NCBI GenBank assembly: GCA_050952725.1
Contig: JBMNLN010000001.1
Coordinates: 752,108-816,107, forward strand
Direction of reading: 5' to 3'
Source: Bacilli bacterium
Lineage (GTDB): Bacteria > Bacillota_I > Bacilli_A > RFN20 > CAG-826
DNA length: 64,000 nucleotides
Part shown: piece by piece, positions 1,235-28,784 of the stretch
Numbering within the stretch: position 1 is the stretch's first letter
Layout: the number at the start of each line of letters is the position of its first letter
Notes under the pieces: generated by a model
The model's database searches: none
The model's input: only the letters and a program-made list of their open reading frames with translations
Told to the model about the DNA's origin: nothing
Translations under genes and position numbers: made by a program

Positions 1235-1237
1235 CCC

Positions 1238-3210: not shown

Positions 3211-3224
3211 GGGGAAAGAAAATT

Positions 3225-4661: not shown

Positions 4662-4730
4662 AGGAGAAGAAGTCGCTACTTGTTATCATTGAAGAAAAAA
4701 CTTCTTTTATGTTATGATAAGTGGCGAATC

Positions 4731-4821
4731 GGAGTAGTACCCAAGTTGGTGAAGGGGCCTCCCTGCTAAGGAGGTAGGTCGGGTAACTGGCGCCAGAGTT
4801 CGAGTCTCTGCTACTCCGCCA
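4731..4821 (+). tRNA. tRNA-Ser (anticodon GCT).
   Basis: GGAGTAGTACCCAAGTTGGTGAAGGGGCCTCCCTGCTAAGGAGG...CTACTCCGCCA has a long variable arm. The anticodon loop is CTGCTAA. Confidence 0.9.
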
Positions 4822-4832
4822 TTGAGCAAATT

Positions 4833-4868
4833 AAGGATTGATTCACAATAATCAATCCTTTTTCTTTC
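4833..4868 (+). terminator. Rho-independent terminator after tRNA-Ser(GCT).
   Basis: Hairpin AAGGATTGATTcacaatAATCAATCCTT is followed by a TTTCTTTC tail. Confidence 0.5.
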
Positions 4869-4957
4869 GCGAAAATCAGAACTTTTCCCGTGGATATTTT
4901 CAATATCCAATTGATAGTTTAAAATAAAAAATAGGAACGATATTTTGGAGAATCACC

Positions 4958-6322
4958 ATGAAACACAAAAAAATAAGAGCCTCGATTTTGACTGGCTATC
5001 TCGCCCTTGGCGTGATTGGTTTATTTAACTCGCTCGGCCAGCGCGGTTTTTTACCAGGAGTTATCGCTAATCCCTTAACTCCCGCTTATAAACGCACCTT
5101 GATTGCTGGCGATGGCCCCGGAGTCGCTGCCCCTTTGCGCGGAGTCGTCGAAATCAAGGGGGATAACTATTATTATGCGACTGCTTCCGCTCAAAGCAGT
5201 GACCAATTGATGATCTTATCGGCGACTGATGCCAAAAACCCGGGAGTTTTAATGAATATCACCGTAATTAACGGCATCGCCGAAGTGAAAGCGACTTTTA
5301 CTGGAAGTGGCAATCTCTATGCGCTGGTCACCGCGACCTTATTTGAGCGTTTTGCGCCGACCGCGGCTGATGGTTTAACTAGTGGGGTTACTAAAGAATT
5401 CGCTACTGTCGGGGGATACTTGCTGCTAATGACCGATTCCCTTAATCCCATCTCAATTGCAAGTCTTGAAATCTGTTTCCACTGCAATGGGGATAATGAT
5501 GCTGGTTTCTTTTTTGAACCAGGAGTCAATGCGTATACTGGAGCCCGTTCTTTAGGAAGTAATATCGCGATGACCCATAACGGACTCTCGTTTACAACCA
5601 ATCCAACCGCGACCACGCATAATTATTCAGGAGAAACAGCTGTTCCTCCGGCAACTCGGGCCAATTCATGGTATCGCTGGAATGGGGTAACTATGAGAAA
5701 CTACAAGTTAGATGGAGAAAACCGCGATTATTCCGCGACGCGTTTTGGCAATTTTTTTAGTTCATCATTTGAAGTCAGCGTTACCGCCTTTGTTGACCCG
5801 GTGGTCTTTTATGATGCGGATGAATGGTTCTGTGTCGCTCCGTGGATGAGTTTATCAGTGCAAGGAGACGCTCGCACTCCGAGGGCTTACTTGCAATCCT
5901 ACATTGGCAATGACAACTATGATCCTTTAACTACGGTAAATACGCTGCATCAACCTTATTGGTCGGGGCGCTTCTTTACTAATTACACTTATGATGCTGC
6001 CGATGCTTATCCCGATGATTATATCTTCCAAGATCCTGATACTTTTACGGTGATCGATGATGCTTCCACCACTCTTCGCGCAGCATATGAAGCGATTAAT
6101 TTACCATTCTTTAATGTCACTTTCCAAATCAGTGGAAATACTTATAAAATCTTCATTAATGGCTTTTGGGTTTATACCGATACGATTCTTTCGACTTATA
6201 CAGACGAAGCCTTTGGGATTGAAACTTTTGATCTACAAGCAGTCAACTATGGAAACGCTGATGGATCACCAAAAGCAGGTTATGCGGTTACCTATTCCAA
6301 CCCAGTAGTGAAAACGATTTAA
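4958..6322 (+). CDS. Hypothetical exported or membrane-anchored protein.
   Basis: The 454 aa product has a basic N-terminus followed by a hydrophobic helix (signal anchor). It is Gly/Thr/Asn-rich and has no recognisable catalytic motif. Confidence 0.45.
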   Translation: MKHKKIRASILTGYLALGVIGLFNSLGQRGFLPGVIANPLTPAYKRTLIAGDGPGVAAPLRGVVEIKGDNYYYATASAQSSDQLMILSATDAKNPGVLMNITVINGIAEVKATFTGSGNLYALVTATLFERFAPTAADGLTSGVTKEFATVGGYLLLMTDSLNPISIASLEICFHCNGDNDAGFFFEPGVNAYTGARSLGSNIAMTHNGLSFTTNPTATTHNYSGETAVPPATRANSWYRWNGVTMRNYKLDGENRDYSATRFGNFFSSSFEVSVTAFVDPVVFYDADEWFCVAPWMSLSVQGDARTPRAYLQSYIGNDNYDPLTTVNTLHQPYWSGRFFTNYTYDAADAYPDDYIFQDPDTFTVIDDASTTLRAAYEAINLPFFNVTFQISGNTYKIFINGFWVYTDTILSTYTDEAFGIETFDLQAVNYGNADGSPKAGYAVTYSNPVVKTI

Positions 6323-6820
6323 GTGATATTTAAAATAATCCGAAAGCATAATCTTGACTAAAAACCAATCGCAATTATGATGTAATTAGGCCCAGGGGAA
6401 TCCTGCGCGGTAAAAAGTGGCTTCGGCCCCTTTTTATTTTTATGTCCATTTCTTTTTTTGATTTGCGGCGAAAAGATGAAGCCCTTTTTTAAAACATTCT
6501 AGATAACCGATGAATTTTAGTTAAATACTTCTCAATAGGTGGGTTGTTTTTGGGGAGTCTCAACCAACTTCCCGTGCTAAAGGTAAAAAGGCGGAAAAAG
6601 CAAAGTTTTGTCCATCAAGAGGTAAAGCCTTCTTGCTTGCCATGCGATTTGGCGTAAGGATTTATTTCAAATGCTCCCAATGATAATTTACTACTAGTTT
6701 ACTTATTGTTTCATAGACCATAATTTATCAATGTGTTAAAATTAACTCGTTGTTAAGGGAAAGGTCTTCCCCTTTGGTATCCCCCTCCCTTAGTTAATCA
6801 ATCTGCAAAAGGAGAATATT

Positions 6821-7945
6821 ATGATTGAAGTCAAGCTGGTCACGACCAAACGTCAGTTGAAGAAGTTCGTCAATTTTCCCGTTAAACTCTACCGAGATTG
6901 TCCTTACTTTACCCCTTATATTTACGAAGAGGAAATGAGCAATCTCACCCCGGGGAAAAACCCCGCGGAGTCCTATTGTGAATTTCAACCCTTCCTCGCT
7001 TACAAAGATGGTAAAATCGTCGGCCGAGTCTGTGCGATTTTAAATCACCATGCCAATAAGCGATATCAGCAAAAGCGCATCCGCTTTAATCGGATTGATA
7101 TGATTGATGATTTCGAAGTCACCCAAGCTTTGATCAAAGCCGTAGAAGATTTCGGGAAAGAACGCGGAATGGATGAGATTACTGGACCTTTAGGCTATAG
7201 CGATCAAGATAAAGAAGGTTTGCTAAAACACGGTTTTGATCGCCACAATATGTTTGTCACCTTCTACCACTTTCCCTATTATTATCAACACTTAACCAAA
7301 CTCGGTTTTGTCGATGATGCCACGTGGAACGAATACCGCATCTATATCCCAGGCGAGGAAGCGATTGGCAAGATGGAAACATTATCTGACTATATCGCAA
7401 AGAAATTTAATTATCGCCTCCTCGACATCAAAAGAAAAAGCGATCTTAAACCTTATGTAGTCAAGGCGCTCTCGGTGATGAATCGCGCTTTTAAAGACCT
7501 CTATGGCTATGTGCAAATCTCGGAAAAAGATATGCATTATCTCGCTGGTCAATATGTTCCCCTCTTCCATCTTGATTACACGGCGATTGTCGTTGATGAA
7601 CACGATGAAGTCGTCGCTTTTGGAGTTTTGATCCCCACTCCTGCGTTTGCCTTAAAGAAGAGCAAGGGAAAACTCCTCCCCTTTGGTTGGATTGGCTTTC
7701 TGCGCGCCTTAAGAAAAGAAAAGATTCTCGATATGCTCCTAGTCGCGGTTGAGCCCGAACTCCAAAACACTGGGGTTTTGACGATGATTTTTGCCAAAGC
7801 GATGCGCAATGCCCACAAAAATGGGATTAAATATGCGGAAACAGGTCCGGAGTTAATCGATAACCTCAAAGTGCAATCGCTATGGAAAAACTTCGAACAC
7901 GAACATCATAAAACCCGGGTCTGCATGGTCAAACCCATCGAGTAA
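6821..7945 (+). CDS. GNAT-like N-acyltransferase family protein (putative).
   Basis: The N-terminal FVNFPVKLYRDCPYFTPYIYEEE resembles the conserved leader of large GNAT-family acyltransferases of about 370 aa. A good RBS (AAGGAG) is present. The call is by family recall only. Confidence 0.4.
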   Translation: MIEVKLVTTKRQLKKFVNFPVKLYRDCPYFTPYIYEEEMSNLTPGKNPAESYCEFQPFLAYKDGKIVGRVCAILNHHANKRYQQKRIRFNRIDMIDDFEVTQALIKAVEDFGKERGMDEITGPLGYSDQDKEGLLKHGFDRHNMFVTFYHFPYYYQHLTKLGFVDDATWNEYRIYIPGEEAIGKMETLSDYIAKKFNYRLLDIKRKSDLKPYVVKALSVMNRAFKDLYGYVQISEKDMHYLAGQYVPLFHLDYTAIVVDEHDEVVAFGVLIPTPAFALKKSKGKLLPFGWIGFLRALRKEKILDMLLVAVEPELQNTGVLTMIFAKAMRNAHKNGIKYAETGPELIDNLKVQSLWKNFEHEHHKTRVCMVKPIE

Positions 7946-8112
7946 AATACGAGTCTTAACCAATCAAAAAGAGCGAGCAACTAGACTCGCTCTTTTCATG
8001 TTCAAGGAGATTATCACTGAAGAGATGAAAATGATTTATAACCATGATGTTTGCTTCGTAAACAACCTAAGTAGTCCTCGAGTACTTTTGCCAAAAAGTG
8101 TCGTTACTTTAA

Positions 8113-8142
8113 AGAACAAAAAAACGAACTTTCATTAGTTCG
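8113..8142 (-). terminator. Rho-independent terminator for the minus-strand lipoprotein gene.
   Basis: On the minus strand the hairpin CGAACTaatgaaAGTTCG is followed by TTTTTTTG. Confidence 0.45.
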
Positions 8143-8167
8143 CTCTTTCATCGCTTTTAACGGGGCT

Positions 8168-8650
8168 TTAAGCACTTAAAGGAATAAAGGTGATTCGGCT
8201 ACTGGTCCATTCTTCAAAACTCTGCGCATCTTCAAACAGAGGATGATCGCTATCATAGGAAATCCAATAATAGGGGTCCCCGCGTTCATAGATAGCAAAG
8301 ATTGGCAACTCGATGCCTGCTTCTGCGATGGGAAGGCCAAAATCATAAAGGAGACTGCCATCGTTGAGCACTTGATAATAGGGGAGATGATGGTCGTTAA
8401 TATAGTCCATCAACGCTGAGTGAAAAGTCAAAGAACACGAGCAATATTGGCTAAAGACCACCAGCAGAAACGAATCCTGATTGTCATAAGCGGCTTTGGT
8501 TTCGGTCTGTTGGCTAATATTGTAATCATCCGGAACGACAAAATGCTCCGCGGGTGTTAATTCGACGCGGTGCAGAGGATTATTTTTACAACTGGCTAAT
8601 CCGCCCAAAAGGGAGAGAAGCCAGAACAAGGACGTGAGTTTTTTCATCAT
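8168..8650 (-). CDS. Small lipoprotein of unknown function.
   Basis: MMKKLTSLFWLLSLLGGLASCKNN is a signal peptide with an L-A-S-C lipobox. Confidence 0.6.
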   Translation of the reverse strand: MMKKLTSLFWLLSLLGGLASCKNNPLHRVELTPAEHFVVPDDYNISQQTETKAAYDNQDSFLLVVFSQYCSCSLTFHSALMDYINDHHLPYYQVLNDGSLLYDFGLPIAEAGIELPIFAIYERGDPYYWISYDSDHPLFEDAQSFEEWTSSRITFIPLSA

Positions 8651-8960
8651 TTATTAATATAGCAAAAAGAATGCAAAAAACATATTTCATTTTGATCGCG
8701 AGGGAAACCAGGTCAAGATTAAACACATCATATTCGCCAAAGCATTGCGAGGATGTTGCCCTTTAATCTAATCACGAAGCGCTTTTTCGCTAATTTTGGT
8801 CGTGAGAAAACAAAGCGGACATGATTTTCCTGTCCTTATAAGGAGAAAACGGAATTAGCCAACAGTCCTCTTGAGAAACGCCATTTGACAATCGGAAGGC
8901 TTTAAGTTGATAATTAATTTATCAAGAGTTTAAATTTTCAAAAAGGAGTTTAAAAAATTC

Positions 8961-10556
8961 ATGAAAAAGAACAACTTTGGAAGAGCTGCCCTTTTAGCCT
9001 TTTCCACCTTGGGACTCGCCCTAGGAATCAGCGGGGTGCTGAAACAGACGGGAGTTGCTGTTCACGCCGCCCCGATTACGACGGGAACGATGATTTATTT
9101 TAAACCGACAGATGGTTGGTTGGAAGCCGGGGCGAAAATGTGCATCTACATGTGGAATGATGGTGGTGAAAAACTTTATGAAGAGATGTCGATTGGGACT
9201 AGCAGCACGGTCTACCACTTTGAAACCCCAACTTCCACGAAAGGCTCATTTGATAACCTCATCTTCCTTCGTAATAATCCGAGCGAACCGATTGGTTGGG
9301 ATGGAAAATGGAATCAAACGAGCGATTTAACTTACGATGGGACCAATAATTTGTATATTATCCCTTATGCCGAACAATGGCAGCAGGCCAGTCTCAATAA
9401 TACACACTGGTCCCTTTATGATGCGGCGACCTATGGTTTGATGGAAATTCCTGATGCGACCGCTTTATATCTTCGTCCCGATGCGGCTTTTATGGATGAT
9501 GGAACCACGACTGCGGACCGGATTGCCGCTTATTTCTTTAATTCCGATGGGAAAAATGCTTGGGTTGAGGCCACCGCGGAAGCCGGCGGACTTTATAAGG
9601 TCTTATCCCCGACTTTAACCGCTGGTGTCTTGCCTAACAAGGTGATCTTTGTTTCGATGAAACAAGGGACAACGGGAAGTAATTGGGACAATAAATTACA
9701 ACAAACGGCCGACCTAATTCCCGATTTAACTAAGCCGCTGTTTGATGTTGCTTCCAGCTCTTGGCAAGGAGTCCCGACGATCGTCACTCCAATCGCGACG
9801 ACCGCTGGGATTAGCAGTAGCAAATTCCGCCTTTGGCTCAACCGCAATAACCACTATCCAAGCGATGCTCATCAATACTTATTAAAAGTGGGCACGAACC
9901 GTTATAGTCCGAGTGGATATGAAAAAGCTTTAGTCTTTGATGTGGATGGAATTTATTTCCCCTATTGGGATTTAGAGATCGCTACTCTCAAAGGTCAAGC
10001 AGTAGGTTTTACCATCGTCAATACCGCTAATGAGGTGCAAGTTGAAATTCCTGCGACCACCTTTATCGAAAAAGATAATAGCAAACTTTGGATTATCCAA
10101 TACAATGAGGAGACATCGACTTGGTCGATTCAAAAAGATAAAATCGTCGGAAGAGCCTTTGCCTCATTTGTCGGCAAAGTACTCGAAGGCTATCTTAGCT
10201 GTTCTTCCAGTGTCGATAACGGCTTTGGGGCTTTTAATCTCGTGAACGAAAACTTCATTGAACGCTTAGAAGGCGGGACGTGGAATGTCGAAGGGAATCT
10301 CGGGGAGGTAATCATCAATGACTTCGCCAATCAAACTGATTATGCTACGGGAACCAAAACCGCAACCGTTGATGCCTATACCAAGCATCAAATGCTACAA
10401 GCCAATTACACCGCCGCTTTAGGCGGAGGGGGAGCGCCTTGGGTTTTAAGAGGTTCCAACTTTAATGCGATTCTGATTTCCGTGTTGATCATGGCGGTGG
10501 TCAGCCTGGGATTATTCGGCCTTCTCGCCTTGAGTAAAAAACGTTTCCAAAACTAA
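8961..10556 (+). CDS. Surface protein with tandem CBM25/26-like (starch-binding-like) modules and a C-terminal transmembrane anchor.
   Basis: There is an N-terminal signal peptide. Two repeats match the IYF..DGW...MWNDGG...NLIFLRNN..KWNQTSDL / ...VIFVSMKQG..NWDNKLQQTADL pattern of CBM25/26 modules. The C-terminus is a hydrophobic helix followed by KKRFQN. It is paralogous to the 30812-32437 product. Confidence 0.55.
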   Translation: MKKNNFGRAALLAFSTLGLALGISGVLKQTGVAVHAAPITTGTMIYFKPTDGWLEAGAKMCIYMWNDGGEKLYEEMSIGTSSTVYHFETPTSTKGSFDNLIFLRNNPSEPIGWDGKWNQTSDLTYDGTNNLYIIPYAEQWQQASLNNTHWSLYDAATYGLMEIPDATALYLRPDAAFMDDGTTTADRIAAYFFNSDGKNAWVEATAEAGGLYKVLSPTLTAGVLPNKVIFVSMKQGTTGSNWDNKLQQTADLIPDLTKPLFDVASSSWQGVPTIVTPIATTAGISSSKFRLWLNRNNHYPSDAHQYLLKVGTNRYSPSGYEKALVFDVDGIYFPYWDLEIATLKGQAVGFTIVNTANEVQVEIPATTFIEKDNSKLWIIQYNEETSTWSIQKDKIVGRAFASFVGKVLEGYLSCSSSVDNGFGAFNLVNENFIERLEGGTWNVEGNLGEVIINDFANQTDYATGTKTATVDAYTKHQMLQANYTAALGGGGAPWVLRGSNFNAILISVLIMAVVSLGLFGLLALSKKRFQN

Positions 10557-10593
10557 ATCATATCTCTAAAAAAACTTTGAAATAAAGTAAGGA

Positions 10594-10627
10594 AGACCTG
10601 AGGGGAAAATCTCAGGTCTTTTCTTAT
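10594..10627 (+). terminator. Rho-independent terminator.
   Basis: Hairpin AGACCTGAGgggaaaatCTCAGGTCT is followed by TTTCTTATC. Confidence 0.5.
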
Positions 10628-11035
10628 CGGGTTTCTCGTCTATCGAAATGAGCATCGCGCGGTTTTTCAAGTGGAGAAAACGGTGATAACCATGGCGACT
10701 TTAACAAATGCTTGAAGAAAACCCCTGGTATTTTAGCCATCGGCTTTAATTATCTTGCTTCGTATTAAGCGAAACTTCTTCCAATTCCCATCATGCCCAA
10801 AACGCTGAAGCAGATGGGGGGAATGATTATTTTTGTCCCAATTTAATTTCCAAGAACCCTAAAATGGCAGACTGCTTTTTTGTTTATGACTTGCAAATGA
10901 AAAACGGTATCAATAATACTTGCAAAATTCTTGAAAAAACTCTATATTTTTATTGCTATCGCTCCAGCCGCTTGGGTATGGTGGTAGTTCACAACAAATG
11001 AGCGCCTGCTCAAGCGTAGAAAATGGGGGTGCACG

Positions 11036-12538
11036 ATGAAGAAAAACGATGTAATCATCGAATTAACGCATGTCAGCAAAGTCTATGATGGCACGACGGT
11101 AGTCGATGATTTTAATTTATATGTGAAAAAAGGCGAGTTTATCACCTTTTTAGGGCCTTCGGGTTGTGGCAAGACGACCACCTTACGGATGATCGCGGGG
11201 TTTGAGTTACCGACGACTGGACAGATCTTCCTAAATGGCGAAGATATCACCAATCTCCCTCCCCATAAACGTCCGATTAACACCGTCTTCCAACGTTATG
11301 CCTTGTTTCCCCATCTCGATGTCTACGACAACATCGCTTTTGGTTTAAAACTGAAACGCCTTCCTGTCGAAGTCGCGCCTGGAAAAATTAAAAAAGTGAA
11401 ATTGACTGAAGCCGAAATCGATGACAAGGTGACGCGCGCTTTAAAACTCGTCGATTTAGAAGCGTTTGAAGACCGCGATGTCACTACCCTCTCGGGGGGG
11501 CAGCAACAACGGGTGGCCATCGCCCGGGCGTTAGTTAATGAACCGCATATCTTACTACTCGATGAACCGTTAGGGGCGCTGGATTTAAAGATGCGCAAGG
11601 AGATGCAAATCGAATTAAAGGAAATGCATCGAAAACTGGGAATTACTTTTATCTATGTCACCCATGACCAAGAAGAAGCCCTGACGATGTCGGATACCAT
11701 CGTGGTGATGCGCGATGGTAAAATCGAGCAAATCGGCACCCCGACGATGATCTATAACGAACCCCAAAATGTCTATGTCGCTGACTTTATCGGCGAGAGC
11801 AATATCTACAGTGCGACGATGATCGATAAGCAGAAAGTCCGCTTCTTAAATGCGACATGGGACTGCGTCGATGAGATGCAAAAGAATGAAAAAGTCGATG
11901 TCGTGGTTCGTCCTGAAGATATCATCATCGGTCCCAAAGGTTCGGGTTCCACCCAAGCCAAGATTACCCATAAAGTCTTCAAAGGCATCCATTATGAATA
12001 TCTCGCCCAAGTCGGAAAATACGATGTGACGATTCAAACCACGGTCGAACATCAATTAGGTGATGAGATCGGCTTGACGATTACTCCCGACAATATTCAC
12101 ATCATGAAAAAGGTCTTTACGGTCAACACCTATGATGATGCATGGATTAACAAGCATAACCAAGTGATGATCGATGATGTGGCTTTTGAATGCGATGTCA
12201 CCCAGTTAAAAGAGGGGGCTACTCTTGATGAAGAAGGATATCTCATCGATCAACAGGGGAAGAAATATGACTTAAATGATGTCGATGTGATCGCTGAAGT
12301 TGCTTTTGATCAAATCGAAGTCATCGATAACCCCGAAGAAGGAACGATTGCGGGGCATATTATCGAATCGATTTATTTAGGTGATCACTATCAGATTATC
12401 GTCCGGACGGAAAATGAAGAAGATTTCGTCATCGATACTCCCTATTTATGGAACCCCGATGACTTTGTCAGTTTAAAAATTGCCCCCGAGGCGATTAAAT
12501 TACGCGCCAAAGGAGAGCTGATCCCCGATGAAGATTAG
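11036..12538 (+). CDS. potA: Spermidine/putrescine ABC transporter ATPase PotA, with an internal insertion and a long C-terminal extension.
   Basis: Walker A (GPSGCGKTT), the ABC signature (LSGGQQQRVAIARA), Walker B (LLLDEP) and an H-loop are present. The 500 aa length, compared with about 370 aa normally, matches the enlarged PotA of Mollicutes. Confidence 0.85.
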   Translation: MKKNDVIIELTHVSKVYDGTTVVDDFNLYVKKGEFITFLGPSGCGKTTTLRMIAGFELPTTGQIFLNGEDITNLPPHKRPINTVFQRYALFPHLDVYDNIAFGLKLKRLPVEVAPGKIKKVKLTEAEIDDKVTRALKLVDLEAFEDRDVTTLSGGQQQRVAIARALVNEPHILLLDEPLGALDLKMRKEMQIELKEMHRKLGITFIYVTHDQEEALTMSDTIVVMRDGKIEQIGTPTMIYNEPQNVYVADFIGESNIYSATMIDKQKVRFLNATWDCVDEMQKNEKVDVVVRPEDIIIGPKGSGSTQAKITHKVFKGIHYEYLAQVGKYDVTIQTTVEHQLGDEIGLTITPDNIHIMKKVFTVNTYDDAWINKHNQVMIDDVAFECDVTQLKEGATLDEEGYLIDQQGKKYDLNDVDVIAEVAFDQIEVIDNPEEGTIAGHIIESIYLGDHYQIIVRTENEEDFVIDTPYLWNPDDFVSLKIAPEAIKLRAKGELIPDED

Positions 12539-18244: not shown

Positions 18245-18319
18245 GGTTCCTTAGCCAAGTTGGTAAGGCAACTGACTGCAACTCAGTGACCGCCGGTTCA
18301 AATCCGGCAGGAACCTCCA
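18245..18319 (+). tRNA. tRNA-Cys (anticodon GCA).
   Basis: GGTTCCTTAGCCAAGTTGGTAAGGCAACTGACTGCAACTCAGTGACCGCCGGTTCAAATCCGGCAGGAACCTCCA. The anticodon loop is CTGCAAC. Confidence 0.9.
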
Positions 18320-18475
18320 ACGATAGGATTTGAACTTGATTGAGTTAAATATAAGAAGGCGTCTTTTTTAAACTAATTAATTGATTTTTATTAATGTTGA
18401 TTAATGAATTAAGGCTCTACTCGTAAAACTCTTGATTTTTTTTAGTTTTTCGAGTAGGATTTGTTTAAGGAAAAT

Positions 18476-19693
18476 ATGATGATAAAAAGAGACTATTATT
18501 TGAATAAACTCATATACTACAAAGATAAAGATTTAATTAAGGTAATAACTGGTATCAGAAGGGTTGGAAAATCTTTTTTGCTTTTTAATTTGTATTATGA
18601 TTACTTAATTAAATCAGGAATTAATCAATCCAATATTATAAAAATAAATCTTGAATCAGATAAAATGAAAACTTTAAGAGACCCAGTAGAATTGTCTAAA
18701 TATGTTAATTCTAAAATTAATAGTAATGATAAATATTATTTATTGATTGATGAAATTCAACATGTTAATGATTTTGAAGATGTGATTAATGGGCTAAGAG
18801 TGGATCTTAATGTTGATATCTATTTGACTGGTTCGAATTCGAAACTACTCTCTAGTGATATTAACACTAAGTTAAGAGGAAGAAGTATTGAAATTAAATT
18901 ATATCCGTTATCTTTTTTTGAGTATCACAATTATTATCAAGGAGATCTTGATGATGATTTCAAGGAATATCTTTTATATGGGGGATTACCATATTTAATC
19001 AATGAAGATGATAGCAATGGGAAAATAGCATATCTAAAGATGATTAATGAAACTGTAGTGATAAAAGATATAGTAGAAAGACATAAGATTAGAAACCCGC
19101 ATTTTTTTAATGCTGTATATGAGTTTTTGTGTTCAAATATCGGTTCATATGTCAGTGCTTATAAAATCGCTAACACATTAAAAAGCAATGGCTATAAAAC
19201 TATAACCAGTGATACTGTCAGCAATTACTTAGAGTTTTTAACTAATGCTTATTTGTTTTACAAAGTAAATCGCTATGATGTTAAAGGAAAAGCATATTTA
19301 AAAACTCAAAATAAGTATTATGCATCAGATATTGGGATGCGAAATGCCAAGATTAATTATCGGCAACTAGAAATAACCCATACATTGGAAAACATTATTT
19401 ATTTAGAACTCTTAAGAAGAGGTTACATTGTTGATATTGGGAAAAATTATAATAGTGAAATTGATTTTATCGCGAAAAATAAGCAAGATACTTATTATCT
19501 TCAAGTCAGTTACACAATAAATGACCCTAATATAAAAGAGCGCGAACTAAAAGCCTTTAAAAATTTAGCGGATGGTTATAAGAAAATTGTTTTAACAATG
19601 GATAAAGATCCATATCTTCATTTAGAAAATGGATATAAAAAGGTTAATATAATTGACTTTTTATTAAAAGAAGACATTTTAGAATTGATATAA
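18476..19693 (+). CDS. AAA_14/DUF4143-family ATPase (archaeal-ATPase-like ATP-binding protein).
   Basis: It has a Walker A motif (GIRRVGKSFLL) and a Walker B motif (YLLIDEIQ). The arrangement ...LTGSNSKLL... with a C-terminal DUF4143-like region is typical of this family. The true ATG is at 18476; the track start at 18461 is TTG. Confidence 0.6.
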   Translation: MMIKRDYYLNKLIYYKDKDLIKVITGIRRVGKSFLLFNLYYDYLIKSGINQSNIIKINLESDKMKTLRDPVELSKYVNSKINSNDKYYLLIDEIQHVNDFEDVINGLRVDLNVDIYLTGSNSKLLSSDINTKLRGRSIEIKLYPLSFFEYHNYYQGDLDDDFKEYLLYGGLPYLINEDDSNGKIAYLKMINETVVIKDIVERHKIRNPHFFNAVYEFLCSNIGSYVSAYKIANTLKSNGYKTITSDTVSNYLEFLTNAYLFYKVNRYDVKGKAYLKTQNKYYASDIGMRNAKINYRQLEITHTLENIIYLELLRRGYIVDIGKNYNSEIDFIAKNKQDTYYLQVSYTINDPNIKERELKAFKNLADGYKKIVLTMDKDPYLHLENGYKKVNIIDFLLKEDILELI

Positions 19694-20150
19694 ATTAAAA
19701 ATATTAAACAAAATTCCAATTAATTGCCAAAAAGTTCAATAGAAGTAGTTTTTCATTTTAAATTCTTCCATATTTGATTTCATTAAACATTTTTCGCGTC
19801 TGAGCTTTCATTCCCTAGGTATTAAGCACATCACAATCTGCTTTATTAATTGAGAATGAGATTTTAGGATAAGTGGTTAAATCTAATTTATCTTCAATGA
19901 TTCCTTTTTCCACGACAGACTTTGATGGTGGCTTTCATGGTATTTGCACAAAATTACATCAAATGTTTCTGGGTTTTGTGCTAGTTAAGCATGGTAGTGT
20001 CTCCTTTCTCAGTGTACTTACTAGAATTGTAGACTGCCTTTTTTGTTTGTTACCTACAAATGTGAAACGGTATCAGAAAAAATATTGAAATTATTTTTAT
20101 ACTTTTTGTGATAACATTTTGGTATAAGACAAAAGCAAAGGTGTTTGTTT

Positions 20151-21032
20151 ATGATTAAAAGAGTAGTCGATTTTACTGGTAATCAAACAATAAGATTTAT
20201 TAAAGAATTGTATGAATGCTTTGATACTGGTTATGCATTTGAGGATTTTGTAAAGGTTTATTTAGAATTCTTGGGGTTTGATGAAGTTGTAGTTACGCAA
20301 AGAGCAAAGGATGGTGGTATTGATTTAACAGCAATCAAAATTGGTATTGGAGGGCTTTCTTCCGAAAAAGGAAAAATAAACTACGAGCCAGATAAAGTAA
20401 TCTATCGAATTCAAGCCAAAAGATATAAACCAACAGGTAAAAAGATACCAATAGATGATATTCGAAAATTTAGAGGGGCAGCAGGATTTAAAAGCGGGCA
20501 AAAAGGGATATTTATAACAACTGGTAAATTTACTTCTGATGCAATTAAAGAAGCTAATGCGAAGCCAGAACAACCCATTATTTTAATTGATGGAGAAACC
20601 TTGATTAAAAGCATGCTAGATTTAAATTTAGGTTTTGTATTTATTCCAGAATTTAAGAAGGAGTTAATCAATAATTTATTGCAAAAAAAGAATATTATTT
20701 TATCAACATCGGAATATGGAAGTGAAAAAAGAAGAGACAATTTTATATCTGTTGATAAACTAATTAGTCTAAACGATATTAGGGCAAGAATAATTGGCGT
20801 TCCTCAAGAAATAATCAATGCTTTAGATGATGACTTTGATAAAATCGAAATTCAAATGGGAGATTTATCCACTAAGGAGTATAGCTACAATAAAAATCGC
20901 AAATATATTGCAGGTGTGACAAAATTCTTTAAAAAATACGGATTGATTGATGATGCTAATGTTTATCATCCTAAAAAAGTTAATTGGATGAAAGAAGGTT
21001 CAAATATCAAGATAACTATTTTAGAAGAATAA
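20151..21032 (+). CDS. Mrr-like (Mrr_cat) restriction endonuclease domain protein.
   Basis: FEDFVKVYLEFLGF ... QRAKDGGIDLTA ... IQAKRYK ... GIFITTGKFTSDA ... IILIDGETL matches the Mrr catalytic-domain pattern (D...(D/E)xK, QxK). The ATG is at 20151 with an AAGGTG RBS. Confidence 0.6.
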   Translation: MIKRVVDFTGNQTIRFIKELYECFDTGYAFEDFVKVYLEFLGFDEVVVTQRAKDGGIDLTAIKIGIGGLSSEKGKINYEPDKVIYRIQAKRYKPTGKKIPIDDIRKFRGAAGFKSGQKGIFITTGKFTSDAIKEANAKPEQPIILIDGETLIKSMLDLNLGFVFIPEFKKELINNLLQKKNIILSTSEYGSEKRRDNFISVDKLISLNDIRARIIGVPQEIINALDDDFDKIEIQMGDLSTKEYSYNKNRKYIAGVTKFFKKYGLIDDANVYHPKKVNWMKEGSNIKITILEE

Positions 21033-21907
21033 GTTTTCTGTAAAGGGTTTGTAAAAATATTACCTTAAAATAACTTCAGCAAATAGAATGATACAATTGA
21101 AGATGTTTATATATCACATGAAAACAATTTAGATAAATTGCTGATTCATGAAGTTTTTAGGCAAATTTCGATTAGGATTTTCAAATGTATCTACTCACAA
21201 ATAGCAAAATGCCGCTTAATTATAATGGCAATTATTCAAAGATACGCAAATGTCATTTATAATATCGACAAATATTGAGGATATGAATTTTTTGAGGTTG
21301 ATGTTTAAAAAGACAACTTTTAACAGAAAAACGTAATATTTTTTGGTCACGACTTGGTTCTAAAATAAAGAAGATTAGTCGTCTAAAGCATTGAATACTT
21401 TCGGAATTATAATCATATTTCCAAACTGGGAAAAGAAATCTTAAAAATTATAAAGAACGGTCGTTATGTCTTGAGTTGTTTGTCTATGCTCACATGAGAA
21501 ACTGAGCGCGATAAACCAGATAGTCTATAAAAAATGCAATTGGTGCAAAAATGGGCCACAATGAAATAAAAGGACTCTATATTCAAAAAGTCGAAATCGT
21601 TTTAAAAAATAACCCAATCTTAACCACAGCCATTTTAGACAATAATATTTGGTAAAAACAATACATAGGCAGGAAAGAAATCGGCTTTCCGCGGCTATCC
21701 AATGTTTTTTAAAGAGACATGATACATTTTCATTGGCTGTAAACCAGTATTTTTTGTATTATAAAGTTATAATTTCAATTTATTGGTTCAAATAAGATAG
21801 GGAAGTATGATTTTGTAAGAAATAAAACATATTATTCAGTTATCCGTGCAATCTAAAAACATACATAAGACTTGCATTTATTAAAAGCAAAGAAATGGAG
21901 GAATATT

Positions 21908-24199
21908 ATGACCACGTGGGATGAGTTAGTTTCAGGTGAAGAACTAGATAAAGTTTCCAAATCGAGAAGAATAAAATATAAAGAGATAAAAGTTGAAAAA
22001 GAATCAATTGCTGAGCACGAAAAAAAAGGTTGGAAAATATTTCGAAGATATAAAGATGGCTCTGCTAAAATGCGAGCCCCAAAAGAGATTGGCGATGCCT
22101 TCGAAGATGAAGTATGGACGATTTTTTATGATATGGGCTTTGAGATTATGAACAAGTCTAATGGTTTCAAATTGTCTTATTCTAAAGGAAATCCAGATTT
22201 AACTAAGCAAATCGATGTTATAGCCATTGATGACGAAGTAATACTATTAGTTGAATGTAAAGCTGCTGATAAGCCAGATACAACAGGAAATTGGAAAAAA
22301 GAACTAGAGTCCATACAAGGCTTTTTTCCGGGTTTGTGCAAAGAAATAAGACAAAAATATAAGAACAGAAAAGTAAAATATATACTAGCTACTAAGAATT
22401 ACCTTATAGGTGAGCAAGATAACAAAAGAATGGAAGAATTCAAAATCGCCAATTTTAACCATGAAGTGGTAACGTATTATGCGGAACTTGTGAAACATCT
22501 AGGCTCTGCCGCTAGATATCAGCTTCTAGGTAATCTATTTGCTAAACAACGCGTTGAAAACATGATAAAAAAAATTCCTGCTATTGAAGGAAGAATGGGG
22601 GGCTTGAAATATTATACATTTTTGATTGAGCCTGAAAAACTTTTAAAAATCTCCTACATTTTACATCGAAGCAAAGCAAATCATAAAATGATGCCAACTT
22701 ATCAAAGGTTGATCAAAAAGGATAGATTAAAGGCAATACGAAAATTTGTTAATGAGGGAGGATATTTTCCAAATTCGATAATTGTATCTATTGATACTGT
22801 TAGAAAAGAGCCAAGATTCGAGTTATTAACTTCCAAATTAGATAACAACAATAATTCGCGAGCGGGTTATCTATATTTGCCAGGGTTTTATCAATCGGTT
22901 TATATAATTGATGGTCAGCATAGGCTATATGGATATTCGGATACTAAATATGCAAACAATAATACAATTCCTGTGGTTGCGTTTTTAAATTTGAGCAAAA
23001 ATGAACAAGTTAAATTGTTTATGGACATTAATCAAAATCAAAAATCCGTTTCGAAGAGTCTCAGAAACACACTCAATGTCGATCTTTTATGGGATTCTGA
23101 AGATGCAAACGAAAGAAAGTTAGCCTTAATGTTAGGGCTTGCTCAATCATTGGGTGAAGATCCAACTTCTCCATTGTTTCAAAGAATTATCACAGGAGAG
23201 GATAAAATTACAGAAAAAAGATGTATTACAATCGATTATATTAAAGAAGCCGTTGCAAATTCATCTTTTTTAAATATTTACAAAAAGGGAAAAAATGAAA
23301 TAATTCAACACGGCACCTTCGATAAAGATGATAATGACAGAACATTAGACTTTCTACTTTCATTTTTAAAAAAAAGTTTAAAACTAATGTCTGAATTCCT
23401 ACAAGAGGAATGGGAAAAGGGAAGTTCTGGATATATAACTATTAATAACACGATGTATGGAATCATTAAAATCATTGATGACATCGTAAATATGACTTTG
23501 AAAAAAGAAAAAAAACAAATTGTTGATAACGCAGATGAGTTCTATAAAAAGTGTGAGCCATTACTTTATAAATTTATAGAAACACTATCATCTCTTGATT
23601 CTGATTCAGTTAAGACAATCAAGGAAGCCAAAGGCGGTGCTGCTAAGAAAATATCTTGGCGCACACTACAAGTTGCGTTTTACAAAAAAGAACCTTGTTT
23701 TACCAACCCTGAATTAGAGCAATATATAATCGAAAATTGCACTGATAATAACCCAGATGCTTCTGAGTATTTATTTCAGATTGAGATGTACTTGAAGGGG
23801 CATTTTAAAGAACAACTAGAAAAAAATAATGACTGGATGAACAATATGATACCTGAATCGTTGACCAATCAACTAATATCCAAAAAAGCAATTGAAGAAA
23901 ATAATAGAAAAAAAATGGATAATTATACAGAAGTAGATGTTTGGGATTTTATTTCCTTTGATGAAATCAAACAGATTGCGACTTATAAAACAAATTGGTC
24001 GGATTTTTGCTCGACAATATTATCTTCTTCAAAAATCAAATCCACTAAAGTTGATGCGATTACATGGCTAAGTTCCTTCTCGAGATACAAATCCAAAATC
24101 ACGACAGAAAAGAATATTTTAACAAGCGAACTAAAGGATATTCGTGATATTTATAATATGTTTTTCTTAAATCAGATTGGAGATGAGAAAAAAACATGA
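21908..24199 (+). CDS. DGQHR-domain (DndB-like, ParB/Srx fold) protein fused to an N-terminal PD-(D/E)xK nuclease-like domain.
   Basis: The YIIDGQHRLYGYSD motif sits in a ParB-like region (FPNSIIVSID...). The N-terminal segment IDVIAIDDEVILLVECKAADK looks like a PD-(D/E)xK motif. A GGAGG RBS lies 7 nt upstream of the ATG at 21908. The stop overlaps the MTase start. Confidence 0.65.
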   Translation: MTTWDELVSGEELDKVSKSRRIKYKEIKVEKESIAEHEKKGWKIFRRYKDGSAKMRAPKEIGDAFEDEVWTIFYDMGFEIMNKSNGFKLSYSKGNPDLTKQIDVIAIDDEVILLVECKAADKPDTTGNWKKELESIQGFFPGLCKEIRQKYKNRKVKYILATKNYLIGEQDNKRMEEFKIANFNHEVVTYYAELVKHLGSAARYQLLGNLFAKQRVENMIKKIPAIEGRMGGLKYYTFLIEPEKLLKISYILHRSKANHKMMPTYQRLIKKDRLKAIRKFVNEGGYFPNSIIVSIDTVRKEPRFELLTSKLDNNNNSRAGYLYLPGFYQSVYIIDGQHRLYGYSDTKYANNNTIPVVAFLNLSKNEQVKLFMDINQNQKSVSKSLRNTLNVDLLWDSEDANERKLALMLGLAQSLGEDPTSPLFQRIITGEDKITEKRCITIDYIKEAVANSSFLNIYKKGKNEIIQHGTFDKDDNDRTLDFLLSFLKKSLKLMSEFLQEEWEKGSSGYITINNTMYGIIKIIDDIVNMTLKKEKKQIVDNADEFYKKCEPLLYKFIETLSSLDSDSVKTIKEAKGGAAKKISWRTLQVAFYKKEPCFTNPELEQYIIENCTDNNPDASEYLFQIEMYLKGHFKEQLEKNNDWMNNMIPESLTNQLISKKAIEENNRKKMDNYTEVDVWDFISFDEIKQIATYKTNWSDFCSTILSSSKIKSTKVDAITWLSSFSRYKSKITTEKNILTSELKDIRDIYNMFFLNQIGDEKKT

Positions 24200-25035
24200 A
24201 ACCTGTTTTAAAATGGGCAGGAGGAAAAAGATTACTAATTCCAGAAATTGCTAAATACATAAATAAACAAAAAATGGAAGAAAAAGGTCATCGATATTTT
24301 GAGCCTTTTGTCGGTGGTGGTGCTGTTTGTTTTCATTTAAAAATAAAAGATTCAGTGATAAATGACATTAATACGGAATTAATAAATGTATACACACAAA
24401 TTAGAGATAATCCAACAGAATTAATTAAAAAATTGAAAGAACACAAAAATAAATACAGTTCTGAATATTATGAAAAGATTAGAGTTTTGGACAGAGAACC
24501 TGACTTTTCCTCAAAACCTGCCGTATTAAGAGCGGCAAGATTTATCTTTTTAAATAAAACCTGTTATAACGGATTATATAGAGTTAATTCATTCGGACAT
24601 TTTAATGTTCCTGAAGGTAAATATAAAAATCCTGATATCGTTTCGGAAAACAATATAAAAAAACTTAGCAAATTTTTAAATGAAAAAAATATCTCTATCA
24701 GAAATGTTGATTTTGAAGAGAGTGTAAGAGATGCAAAGGCGGGCGATGTTGTCTATTTTGATCCTCCTTATGACTATGAATATGAAGGTTTTAATGGATA
24801 TAATGTTGATGCTTTTGATCGAGAAAATTTAAAGAGATTAAAACGAGTCGCGGACGATTTAACTAATCGTGGATGCAAAGTTATTATTAGTAATAACAAT
24901 ACTAAGTTTGTCAATGACTTGTTTGACTCAGAAAATTATACAATTGAATATGTGGAAGCCAATAGATTTATTAATTGTGACGGTAAAGGAAGAAAGAAAG
25001 TAAGAGAGGTTATTATTTATGGAGAAAAAAAATAA
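24196..25035 (+). CDS. Dam-family (D12 class) DNA N6-adenine methyltransferase.
   Basis: LKWAGGKRLL (motif X), FEPFVGGGAV (motif I) and YFDPPYD (motif IV, DPPY) are present. There is an ATGA overlap with the upstream gene. Confidence 0.8.
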   Translation: MKPVLKWAGGKRLLIPEIAKYINKQKMEEKGHRYFEPFVGGGAVCFHLKIKDSVINDINTELINVYTQIRDNPTELIKKLKEHKNKYSSEYYEKIRVLDREPDFSSKPAVLRAARFIFLNKTCYNGLYRVNSFGHFNVPEGKYKNPDIVSENNIKKLSKFLNEKNISIRNVDFEESVRDAKAGDVVYFDPPYDYEYEGFNGYNVDAFDRENLKRLKRVADDLTNRGCKVIISNNNTKFVNDLFDSENYTIEYVEANRFINCDGKGRKKVREVIIYGEKK

Positions 25036-25477
25036 AATTCCCTTTCCACAGGCTAATGATTTTGAAAAAGTCATCATGATATTAAATATTAATAATGAGG
25101 CCAATTTGAAAAAAAAATCTGTTATTTCAATGATTTTGGGAGATGTTGAATATAGACAAGTACAATATTACGTTTCTGCGTTAATATATTTGGGATTAGC
25201 AACAAAAGAAAAAACTTTTTCTGAAAAAGGGAAATATATTCGGACACTAGGTTATTCGGAGCAAATAATAGAGTTAGCAAAGCTTATTGTTTCAAAAGAT
25301 GTGTTTGGCACAGCCTATTTTACGGAACAATTTTTAAAAATTAAACTTGATGTTGATGATGTTGTCCAAATAATGAAAATATATGTTGACTTTGATAGTA
25401 ATTCAACATACAAGCGCCGAGCCCAAACCGTAATAAGTTGGTTAGAGTGGATTAATAATAAAAAGAAAGATTTATGA
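25019..25477 (+). CDS. Hypothetical small protein of 152 aa in the island.
   Basis: The ORF overlaps the MTase 3' end by 17 nt and is AT-rich. No motif is recognised. Confidence 0.35.
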   Translation: MEKKNKIPFPQANDFEKVIMILNINNEANLKKKSVISMILGDVEYRQVQYYVSALIYLGLATKEKTFSEKGKYIRTLGYSEQIIELAKLIVSKDVFGTAYFTEQFLKIKLDVDDVVQIMKIYVDFDSNSTYKRRAQTVISWLEWINNKKKDL

Positions 25478-25602
25478 ATTAATTTCTTAATCATTTTTTG
25501 AAAAAAGAAATTTTATTCTTTGGTGACACTAAGAAAAGAGTTGGTAATCCATTTATTATCTTGAAAAAGTCGCCTCCAAGTTATATATTGTATAAGCGTG
25601 TT

Positions 25603-25679
25603 GCGCCGATAGCTCAACTGGATAGAGTGCCAGACTACGAATCTGGAGGTTGCGAGTTCGATTCTTGCTCGGCGCGCCA
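25603..25679 (+). tRNA. tRNA-Arg (anticodon ACG).
   Basis: GCGCCGATAGCTCAACTGGATAGAGTGCCAGACTACGAATCTGG...TCGGCGCGCCA. Confidence 0.9.
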
Positions 25680-25689
25680 TGACTTTTTC

Positions 25690-25765
<76 letters not shown>

Positions 25766-25820
25766 TGATTGTTCTCAACCTTTCCCCTTGATCTTATCCT
25801 AATATCAAATGGGAATTCTC

Positions 25821-25896
25821 GGGGCCATAGTTCAGTTGGGAGAACGCCTGCTTTGCAAGCAGGAGGTCAGGGGTTCGAGCCCCCTTGGCTCCACCA
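25821..25896 (+). tRNA. tRNA-Ala (anticodon TGC).
   Basis: GGGGCCATAGTTCAGTTGGGAGAACGCCTGCTTTGCAAGCAGG...GGCTCCACCA, with a G3:U70-type acceptor. Confidence 0.9.
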
Positions 25897-25903
25897 GTAA
25901 GAT

Positions 25904-25978
25904 GGCTGTGTAGCTCAGCGGTAGAGCGTCCGGTTCATACCCGGCAGGTCGGCGGTTCAAATCCGCCCGCAGCTACCA
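25904..25978 (+). tRNA. tRNA-Met, elongator (anticodon CAT).
   Basis: GGCTGTGTAGCTCAGCGGTAGAGCGTCCGGTTCATACCCGG... closely resembles Bacillus elongator tRNA-Met. Confidence 0.8.
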
Positions 25979-26079
25979 TGGAAACGAAATAGTCGCTGTT
26001 GATCCAGTGACTTTTTTGTTGCTTAGGGTAGGTATTTGTTTAAATAAATATCTATTTAATGTATTATATTTATGCTTGT

Positions 26080-26155
26080 GGACCCTTAGCTCAATGGTTA
26101 GAGCGACCGGCTCATAACCGGTTGGTTTCGGGTTCAAGTCCTGAAGGGTCCACCA
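26080..26155 (+). tRNA. tRNA-Ile2 (CAT anticodon, lysidine-type), less likely Met.
   Basis: GGACCCTTAGCTCAATGGTTAGAGCGACCGGCTCATAACCGG...AGGGTCCACCA resembles ileX-type tRNA-Ile(LAU), which reads GGCCCCTTAGCTCAGTGGTTAGAGC...CTCATAA.... Confidence 0.7.
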
Positions 26156-26162
26156 TGCTTTT

Positions 26163-26253
26163 GGAAGCATACCCAAGTGGTTGAAGGGGTCGGTCTTGAA
26201 AACCGATAGGGGGTGTGAGCCCTGCTAGAGTTCGAATCTCTATGCTTCCGCCA
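26163..26253 (+). tRNA. tRNA-Ser (anticodon TGA).
   Basis: GGAAGCATACCCAAGTGGTTGAAGGGGTCGGTCTTGAAAACCGA... has a long variable arm. Confidence 0.9.
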
Positions 26254-27367: not shown

Positions 27368-28462
27368 TCAATCAGGGATGGCTTTCTCTGCCCATTCATA
27401 TCTTGCGCGATGATGGCTTTGATCCCTAGGTATTTTTTTATCTTTCATTAAACGGCTATAGACGATTGATGGTAAAACCTCGGCTTCTTGGGCCAACATC
27501 GCCATTGTCTGATCATTTATTTCATAGTTGCTGATATATTTTTGGTATATTTCGGGATTAATTAAAGTATCCTCAGCAAATTTATTCGCTCTTTTTTCAA
27601 ATTTCTTGCTGGTTTCTTCATCGAGATCATTCTGTAAGTAATCGCCAAAGATGATGTGACCAATTTCATGAAATAATGTAAACCAGAAAATATCGACAAA
27701 TTTATGTCTAAGCGTTAAGGCAATTAAGGGATTATCAGTCATGGTCTTCACGGTTAAACCATTAATTGGGGCTTTTTCAACATGTTTTTTTACGGTGAAA
27801 TAGACGCCGCAACTGTTCAATTCTTCTTGGATTAACCTGATGATTTTCTCCGGTTCTGCAAACATGATTCTTTTAATGTTCGGCAATCTCTTTTTAAGTC
27901 TTTCAAGGTCGAGAGCGGCTACATTTTGCGCATAGACTTCTTGCTCACATAAATATTGCCAAGTATACATGACAAGATGACTGGTTCCTTTGGCGAATTG
28001 GCGTCGATAAAGACCTTGATTGGCTAATTTTGTATGACTAATAGCAGTTAAGTTATTTACCCCCAGGATTTTTCGGAGTTCGTAAATAATTTCATCATAG
28101 AGTTTATCGCCAAATTTTTCTCCCGTAATATCCGCGACTGGTTTTTTAATTTCCCGTGCTATTTCGTGTTCTTCATCGCTGATTTGTTGACTTTGTTTCA
28201 GATAAAAAAGCTCTTTATCATAATTAGCTTGTAAGTTAATCCAAAAAGTATCACTACTATTTAAAGCGATTGCTAATTTTTGCGCAAATTCGTTGGTGAT
28301 ATTGCTCTTGCCGTTAATCACACTGGAAATATGTTTTTCGGTGACCGCAGCCCGAGTCGCTAATTCTTTTTGCGAATAGCCGCGTTCCGCGATGATTTCT
28401 GCTAAGATTTCTCCGGGATGAATTAACAAGTCAAGGGATGTATGTCGTCGTTTTTCCACCAT
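27368..28462 (-). CDS. higA: HigA-like antitoxin: an XRE-family HTH domain fused to an ImmA/IrrE-family (M78) zinc metallopeptidase domain.
   Basis: The N-terminal HTH is ...GYSQKELATRAAVTEKHISSVINGK.... The C-terminal HExxH motif is FTLFHEIGHIIFGD. It overlaps the upstream higB-like gene by 32 nt. Confidence 0.65.
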   Translation of the reverse strand: MVEKRRHTSLDLLIHPGEILAEIIAERGYSQKELATRAAVTEKHISSVINGKSNITNEFAQKLAIALNSSDTFWINLQANYDKELFYLKQSQQISDEEHEIAREIKKPVADITGEKFGDKLYDEIIYELRKILGVNNLTAISHTKLANQGLYRRQFAKGTSHLVMYTWQYLCEQEVYAQNVAALDLERLKKRLPNIKRIMFAEPEKIIRLIQEELNSCGVYFTVKKHVEKAPINGLTVKTMTDNPLIALTLRHKFVDIFWFTLFHEIGHIIFGDYLQNDLDEETSKKFEKRANKFAEDTLINPEIYQKYISNYEINDQTMAMLAQEAEVLPSIVYSRLMKDKKIPRDQSHHRARYEWAEKAIPD

Positions 28463-28784
28463 GGTAATCTTCCACTCCTTTGATAATTACTTTGTCACAT
28501 TGAGCGAAAGCGATAAGGCTTACGTCTCCATTTTCCGTCATTGGTTGTAGGATTAATCTTTTGTTCTTGTCGACACTAACCGCGAATAATCCTTTTTTAT
28601 CGCCTTTTAATGCATGAGGATTCCCCGGGGCTATTTTTAGGAATTCCGCAAAACTGATTGCTGCTTTGAGCACATCATATCTCATTTTTATTCTTCGCGT
28701 TATTTCAATGCCCTTTTTTCTCTTCATTAATTCAAAGTTTTCAAATAATAATGCTACTCTTCTATCATCATAGACGATTTCCAC
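28431..28784 (-). CDS. higB: HigB-like (RelE/ParE superfamily) toxin.
   Basis: ...IAPGNPHALKGDKKGLFAVSVDKNKRLILQP...VIIKGVEDYH matches the HigB killer-protein consensus (PGN..E.LKGDRKG...R.I.......I..V.DYH). The GTG start has a GAAGG RBS. Gene order is toxin first, then antitoxin. Confidence 0.65.
   Translation of the reverse strand: MEIVYDDRRVALLFENFELMKRKKGIEITRRIKMRYDVLKAAISFAEFLKIAPGNPHALKGDKKGLFAVSVDKNKRLILQPMTENGDVSLIAFAQCDKVIIKGVEDYHGGKTTTYIP

Follow-up and report, generated by a model that had tools for sequence, protein, structure and literature searches.

Gene content of the cassette and domains of its products

The stretch analysed here (the window) comprises 64,000 nucleotides (nt) from a Bacilli bacterium (contig JBMNLN010000001.1 of assembly GCA_050952725.1, positions 752,108 to 816,107, forward strand), and it contains a cassette of three genes on one strand. 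These encode a 763-amino-acid (aa) protein, named here the nuclease-DGQHR protein, which combines a PD-(D/E)xK nuclease domain with a DGQHR domain, a Dam-family DNA methyltransferase (methylase) of the D12 class and a small DUF7226 protein (Table 1). The stop codon of the first gene and the ATG of the second overlap as ATGA in the sequence, and the 3' end of the dam gene shares 17 nt with the DUF7226 gene. An initial annotation, made from the sequence alone, had described a translationally coupled pair; the overlap and the D12 class of the methylase are borne out by the sequence and by the PF02086 and TIGR00571 profiles, while the pair has to be extended to three genes, the DUF7226 gene having been missed. 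The nuclease-DGQHR open reading frame (ORF) was listed as 21872-24199 (+) with a TTG start and has an ATG within it at 21908. This ATG is taken as the correct start because it is preceded at 6 nt by GGAGG and because a database protein from a Bacilli metagenome-assembled genome, 100% identical to the product, also has 763 aa.

Both motifs that had been read in the 763 aa protein, the nuclease-like one and DGQHR, are present in its translation, and the DGQHR domain model TIGR03187 matches strongly (E 1.6e-46, 159.3 bits against a cut-off of 58.85). In the AlphaFold2 model (predicted local distance difference test score, pLDDT, 89.2), the N-terminal domain has the restriction-endonuclease-like alpha/beta core fold, which by sequence gave only sub-threshold NERD, Hjc or Card1 matches, and the DGQHR domain has the ParB/sulfiredoxin fold. 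The last 237 residues are all-helical and have no family match; a HEPN-like nature of this region is possible. The only named families recovered for the protein are DpdB (NF041060, E 9.5e-18, 64 bits against a cut-off of 300; PADLOC DpdB model, 1.7e-18) and DndB (equivalog TIGR03233, 30 bits against 328), and the Pfam families DUF262 and DUF1524 gave no match.

Among PADLOC models, DpdB and DndB were the only ones matched, with no restriction-enzyme or candidate-defence model. A sequence search of the 763 aa protein against all PDB chains returned nothing, even at E 1 to 10, and Foldseek against PDB gave no match at E 0.001 or better and single-domain nuclease matches only, so that no solved structure corresponds to the protein beyond single domains. 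It has been noted in general terms that nucleases occur fused to DGQHR and ParB domains and that these domains are associated with restriction-modification (R-M) loci (PMC3632139), and the gene pair is mentioned in an epidemiological context as a marker of accessory lineages of Mycobacterium abscessus (PMC9248903); a functional study of the family was not found in the literature search. Because no PADLOC restriction-enzyme or defence model, full-length structure match or functional paper was found, the earlier description of the pair as an undescribed R-M-like system stands, with the restriction activity itself suggested by comparative genomics.

Conservation was evaluated in 76 full-length relatives of 27-58% identity. 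The catalytic residues E66, D103, E116 and K118 of the nuclease domain, the last two separated by a cysteine in the window protein (E116-C-K118), are kept in 73, 71, 66 and 63 of them, respectively. In the DGQHR domain, a QR pair, the DGQHR motif (including the equivalent of the Box II arginine) and the FxxxN positions F371 and N375 are kept in at least 95% of the sequences.

The second gene encodes a methylase with strong matches to TIGR00571 (E 2.5e-77, 260 bits against 114.85) and PF02086 (E 6.9e-59, 200 bits against 22). Its closest PDB relative is DpnM (2dpm, E 3e-65, 43.6% identity), a level of identity also shown by the methylase of a genuine DpnII cassette found in one of the related loci described below (L007). 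About 77 of 79 partner methylases retain the K/R-W-x-G-G-K, [YF]NG[LI]xR, NVP and DPPY motifs, and the window methylase keeps the residues aligned with the DNA-contact positions of EcoDam. Because the methylase is DpnM-like, at the level of a true DpnII-cassette methylase, GATC is its likely mark.

The third gene product matches DUF7226 (PF23871, E 3.1e-21, 76.2 bits against a gathering score of 27). Its sequence retrieved nothing from all PDB chains, even at E 1 to 10, and two homology searches recovered stand-alone proteins of about 150 aa only. The C-terminus of the PADLOC model PDLC03513, assigned to a type II restriction enzyme that could not be identified, resembles DUF7226.

Table 1. 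Coordinates of the cassette, its island and the related loci named in the text. Positions are those of the window unless a locus is given.
Feature	Position	Strand	Remarks
GGAGG ribosome-binding site	21897..21901	+	6 nt 5' of nuclease-DGQHR ATG; direct sequence reading
Nuclease-DGQHR gene, 763 aa	21908..24199	+	Proposed restriction subunit; ORF and translation
PD-(D/E)xK nuclease core, aa ~59-215	22082..22552	+	
Catalytic residue E66	22103-22105	+	
Catalytic residue D103	22214-22216	+	
Catalytic residue E116	22253-22255	+	
Catalytic residue K118	22259-22261	+	
DGQHR / ParB-Srx-fold domain, aa 225-526	22580..23485	+	Putative nucleoside triphosphate (NTP) binding
DGQHR motif, aa 335-339	22910-22924	+	
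All-helical C-terminal domain, aa 527-763	23486..24196	+	No family assignment; possibly HEPN-like
ATGA stop/start overlap	24196-24199	+	Sequence reading
Dam-family D12-class DpnM-like N6-adenine DNA methyltransferase, 279 aa	24196..25035	+	TIGR00571, PF02086
Methylase DPPY motif, aa 189-192	24760-24771	+	
DUF7226 protein, 152 aa	25019..25477	+	Tandem winged-helix DNA-binding fold; PF23871
Low-GC island with cassette	18320..25500		tRNA-Cys (18245-18319) on one side, tRNA cluster (25603-26253) on the other
AAA_14/DUF4143 ATPase gene	18461-19693	+	In island; PADLOC PDC-S01, E 1.9e-141
Mrr_cat nuclease gene, 295 aa with extra C-terminal region	20145-21032	+	In island; PADLOC PDC-S02
Divergent D12 methylase, Listeria portnoyi	L039 4880-5809	-	
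Divergent D12 methylase, Enterococcus quebecensis	L044 4962-5864	-	
Distant relative with radical-SAM operon, L081 (NC_009426.1 pNL1)	4974-11472		Alphaproteobacterial plasmid
Distant relative with radical-SAM operon, L082 (NZ_CP072139.1)	4989-11693		Alphaproteobacterial plasmid
Dam-DUF7226 loci L083-L088	~1-6460 each		811 aa protein, 432 aa protein, 830 aa PLD + SNF2-helicase protein, then Dam-DUF7226

Methylase linkage and related modules across genomes

More than 3,358 protein clusters match the nuclease-DGQHR family, which is found in Bacillota, Bacteroidota, Actinomycetota, Pseudomonadota, Campylobacterota and Melainabacteria. In a one-genome-per-species collection 561 relatives were confirmed, and gene neighbourhoods were analysed for the best 80 of these (loci with L numbers). 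Of the 80 loci, 78 have a D12 methylase gene (PF02086) next to the nuclease-DGQHR gene; they come from at least five phyla, and the linkage is near-obligate and phylum-spanning. In about 70 of the 78 the methylase is on the same strand within some 100 nt, with a usual separation of -17 to +41 nt; it lies directly upstream in 59 loci (gaps of -17 to +95 nt, median 15 nt) and directly downstream, the order of the window, in nine (-17 to +2 nt), and methylases detected by Pfam likewise abut the gene in L046 and L050. Of the other two loci, one is cut by a contig end (L058), and the other has a version of the protein without the nuclease domain, among helicase-like genes (L080). No other neighbouring gene is common to more than seven of the 80 loci. 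The pairwise divergence of the nuclease-DGQHR proteins is correlated with that of their methylases (Mantel r 0.57, reached by none of 999 permutations). The co-occurrence with a methylase therefore holds, and the methylase of the window is not an unrelated orphan; together with the strong DGQHR match, all three checks that the initial annotation had set against its own interpretation turned out in its favour.

Four of the loci (L007, L008, L070 and L078) also have an adjoining complete DpnII cassette, with Dam and R.DpnII (PF04556, E 1e-94 or better), to which a DpnA-type N6_N4 methylase is added in the first two. Since these cassettes adjoin it, the nuclease-DGQHR protein coexists with GATC-methylated host DNA and tolerates it, and its associated mark appears tied to GATC. 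In about eight loci a small XRE-type helix-turn-helix (HTH) gene abuts the cassette, overlapping the start of the nuclease gene in L003, an arrangement that looks like that of the controller proteins of type II systems. In seven of the 80 loci (e.g., L018, 1614-5150) two genes of the same orientation lie ahead of the pair, one for a protein of about 636 aa with an MrfA Zn-binding (MZB/DUF1998) domain and another for a protein of about 534 aa with NERD and helicase domains, which suggests a larger composite defence operon in this subclade. A phage-borne origin of the family was considered and rejected, the family being essentially absent from phage and viral sequence sets: 50,697 phage records contained no full-length match and 2.9 million viral contigs only one.

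The DUF7226 gene was found only where the methylase is downstream, in about 12 of the 80 loci, and is fused to the methylase in L001; it is dispensable for the core nuclease/methylase pair. No operator-like motif common to ten loci of the DUF7226 type was found upstream of the nuclease gene. In other loci (L083-L088) a Dam-DUF7226 dyad with an identical 17-nt overlap lacks the nuclease-DGQHR protein and lies beside a PLD and SNF2-helicase protein. The 432 aa protein encoded in these loci has a weak ddrB-ParB match (E 0.0009), and the whole looks like a different multi-gene restriction module in which the modification module is shared. Because the dyad adjoins a PLD/SNF2-helicase protein in these loci, the methylase and DUF7226 together behave as a modification unit able to serve different nuclease modules. 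Downstream of the dyad, L086-L088 have Mrr_cat and NERD+HRDC genes, with an additional AAA_14/DUF4143 gene in L088 that echoes the island of the window, and L083-L085 have mobile-element genes (MobL, serine recombinase) in place of the Mrr and NERD genes.

Distant full-length relatives (about 770-786 aa, 27-34% identity) were also found on plasmids of Novosphingobium and Agrobacterium/Rhizobium (L081 and L082). These have no adjacent Dam; they lie instead next to an operon for a small DGQHR protein of 342 aa, a radical-SAM protein of 543 aa and an ATPase of the GHKL/HATPase_c_3 type of 524 aa, a linkage that is kept in two different gene orientations. The operon may constitute an undescribed radical-SAM-based DNA modification module that has the same kind of nuclease partner. 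Upstream, L082 has another GHKL gene as well as one for PIN_8.

Island context of the cassette

The three cassette genes lie at the end of an island with a guanine-plus-cytosine (GC) content of 0.28-0.33, against about 0.44 in the flanks, surrounded by housekeeping genes. Two further genes of the island, for an AAA_14/DUF4143 ATPase and an Mrr-family nuclease, match PADLOC candidate-defence models (Pfam, PADLOC), and the context is thus that of a defence island. An Mrr-type nuclease, possibly methyl-directed, and a Dam methylase coexist in it. The island has no integrase gene, and no att-like direct repeats bound it beyond short AT-rich chance matches. A scan for promoters and terminators did not rise above shuffled controls, and the Rfam search returned tRNAs only.

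Between the Mrr-family gene and the nuclease-DGQHR gene there is an AT-rich gap of 875 nt (21033-21907), unusually long for an intergenic stretch of this window, in which no ORF of 60 aa or more, Rfam match, pseudogene remnant or similarity to related loci was found. Past the tRNA cluster, at 27368-28784 (-), a gene whose 117 aa product weakly matches a HigB-like toxin overlaps that of a 364 aa protein with HTH_3 and Peptidase_M78 domains (IrrE/ImmA-like), in a region of somewhat low GC (0.35-0.36); the two probably form a regulatory module of the toxin-antitoxin or prophage type.

Proposed function, alternatives and comparison with known systems

It is proposed here, with moderate confidence, that the three genes form an R-M-type defence cassette, acquired by horizontal transfer, in which the 763 aa protein cuts unmarked DNA under the control of an NTP switch. 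The DpnM-like methylase would mark the host DNA, most likely at GATC, and the N-terminal PD-(D/E)xK domain would cut DNA that lacks the mark. The central DGQHR/ParB-fold domain would bind NTP and, as in GmrSD, BrxU and SspE, gate or position the nuclease; such a switch is proposed because of the analogy with these enzymes and because a DndB-like protein has been shown to bind ATP and GTP (PMC4619093, PMC12704722), NTP binding in ParB-fold proteins requiring the P-motif arginine (PMC12704722). The helical C-terminus would probably help to bind DNA or to form oligomers. DUF7226, whose gene is tied to that of the methylase, is most likely a small DNA-binding accessory, either a regulator of expression timing or an adaptor for DNA targeting. 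The nuclease-DGQHR proteins would then be an uncharacterised family of R-M restriction subunits, members of which may already stand in REBASE as putative entries.

Several observations weigh against this proposal. The GATC frequency of the window is low (observed/expected 0.54 by Markov expectation, 0.30 in the island), but AGCT (0.50), ACGT (0.54) and GTAC (0.58) are equally depleted in the window, so the depletion is uninformative for GATC restriction. The under-representation of several 4-bp palindromes hints that several systems exert, or once exerted, restriction pressure on this genome. The mark may not be GATC in all members, because the partner D12 methylases of L039 and L044 are divergent, are oppositely oriented, have NYIGSK and DSPY motifs and belong to another D12 subfamily (28-29% identity to the Dam of the window). 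Some members may be inactive or misaligned, since 11 of the 76 relatives have H or R in place of K118 and nine have a hydrophobic residue in place of E116. The closest named families are not restriction enzymes, DndB being a regulator and DpdB a modification-assisting ATPase. The main weakness is the presence of R.DpnII in four loci; it shows that a different cognate nuclease can serve the methylase, and the DGQHR protein might there be an auxiliary effector and not the primary restriction enzyme.

This last point leads to the alternative that survives best, according to which the 763 aa protein is not a classical restriction enzyme but an auxiliary, backup or modification-sensing effector; it would monitor Dam methylation or NTP pools and then serve as a suicide nuclease or a second line of defence, or, as SspE does with phosphorothioate, depend on the host's own mark for its activity against foreign DNA. 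Besides the four loci where a complete DpnII system brings its own nuclease, the possibly HEPN-like helical region fits such a role, and ParB-fold proteins with nucleases have been described as auxiliary effectors at BREX and R-M loci (PMC12839542; PMC3632139). SspE is described as coupling recognition of a self-mark (phosphorothioate) to NTP hydrolysis and cleavage (PMC13251355). About 74 of the 78 linked loci have no other adjacent restriction nuclease gene, leaving the DGQHR protein as the only nuclease partner, and the tight translational coupling and the methylase-first order are typical of cognate R-M pairs; the alternative is therefore regarded as unlikely.

Less probable still is a role in assisting or regulating modification like that of DndB or DpdB, in which the nuclease fold would be used for DNA binding only and the ParB-fold ATPase would load the methylase on DNA or limit it there, or repress the operon. 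DndB is an ATP-modulated repressor and the DpdB ATPase is needed for base insertion (PMC10853773; PMC12839542), and no named families other than these two were matched; the profile scores given above, however, fall far short of both cut-offs. Dam and DpnM methylases work alone, which counts against the need for a helper. Conservation of the acidic and lysine catalytic residues from phylum to phylum is unexpected in a mere binding module, and the exchange of the nuclease-DGQHR protein for a PLD-helicase nuclease beside the Dam-DUF7226 dyad indicates a restriction slot, not a helper slot.

A housekeeping role similar to that of MutH, with strand discrimination at hemimethylated GATC in repair or replication, would account for the pairing of a GATC-type Dam with a PD-(D/E)xK nuclease, but is very improbable: defence genes share the low-GC island, and relatives of 36-58% identity are scattered patchily over several phyla, which indicates horizontal transfer. 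The lack of mutS and mutL among the conserved neighbours of the 80 loci, the extra ParB-fold domain and the DpnII cassettes adjacent in some loci also count against it. That an orphan Dam stands beside the DGQHR protein by chance, D12 methylases being common and having other partners too, is effectively refuted by the linkage in 78 of 80 loci across phyla, the two gene orders, the start/stop overlaps and the correlated divergence.

If the proposed R-M cassette is real, it represents a widespread and never characterised restriction-enzyme family present in at least 561 species genomes. The theme of a ParB fold joined to a nuclease, as in the type IV enzymes GmrSD, BrxU and SspE, would be extended to a system protected by a methylase, a nucleotide-dependent enzyme would join the GATC restriction repertoire, and a tractable two-gene system would be available for ParB-fold biochemistry. 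Cultured isolates of Listeria, Enterococcus, Paenibacillus and Clostridium carry the pair, which may be an unrecognised barrier to transformation in them. Cultured carriers include Paenibacillus macerans MER 50.2, Clostridium frigidicarnis DSM 12271, Eubacterium aggregans SR12, Pseudobutyrivibrio ruminis CF1b and Listeria portnoyi FSL L7-1582. A broader and rather doubtful extension, offered tentatively, is that of a new and modular class of restriction endonuclease, in which the DGQHR domain is an NTP switch that controls the PD-(D/E)xK nuclease and reads a protective mark, placed in most members by a GATC Dam, while the distant plasmid relatives are linked to the radical-SAM operon. If this were true, a second, novel DNA modification would be read by the same kind of nuclease.

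In comparison with known systems, the cassette resembles the DpnII system (DpnM/DpnA/R.DpnII) in having a D12-class, DpnM-like Dam whose gene is tightly coupled to a nuclease gene. It differs in the absence of a PF04556 nuclease from the window, in the partner, a 763 aa protein of unrelated sequence with a ParB-fold DGQHR domain and a helical C-terminus, and in the extra DUF7226 gene. With DndB and DpdB the 763 aa protein shares the DGQHR domain and its motifs, and all three are partners of DNA-modification enzymes; DndB and DpdB have about 350 aa and no nuclease domain, and the window protein scores far below both equivalog cut-offs. No dndACDE, ssp or dpdA genes were found near the cassette, nor any dnd or transglycosylase genes among the conserved neighbours of the 80 loci. 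Because of the low profile scores and the absence of partner genes, identity with a Dnd, Ssp or Dpd system was rejected, and with it the suggestion of the initial annotation that a Dnd/Ssp-like variant might be present.

The tandem winged-helix fold of DUF7226 resembles both BrxA, a BREX accessory, and the recognition domain of FokI and N.BspD6I, but at 9-14% identity no similarity can be detected between the sequences, and DUF7226 is coupled to D12 dam genes. The CARF-nuclease effectors Card1, Can2 and Cdn1 differ in their sensor, which in the window protein has the ParB fold and not the CARF fold, and the window locus has no CRISPR context. A similar design is that of GmrSD, BrxU and SspE, where, as proposed by analogy for the window protein, a nucleotide-binding module of the ParB/Srx fold is coupled to a DNA nuclease and cleavage would be set by the modification state; DUF262 is a recognised relative of DGQHR (PMC4619093). 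These enzymes have a DUF262 NTPase followed by a C-terminal HNH nuclease (DUF1524), whereas the nuclease of the window protein is an N-terminal PD-(D/E)xK domain. Furthermore, GmrSD and BrxU are modification-dependent type IV enzymes that stand without a methylase, in contrast to the nuclease-DGQHR family, which is almost always methylase-linked.

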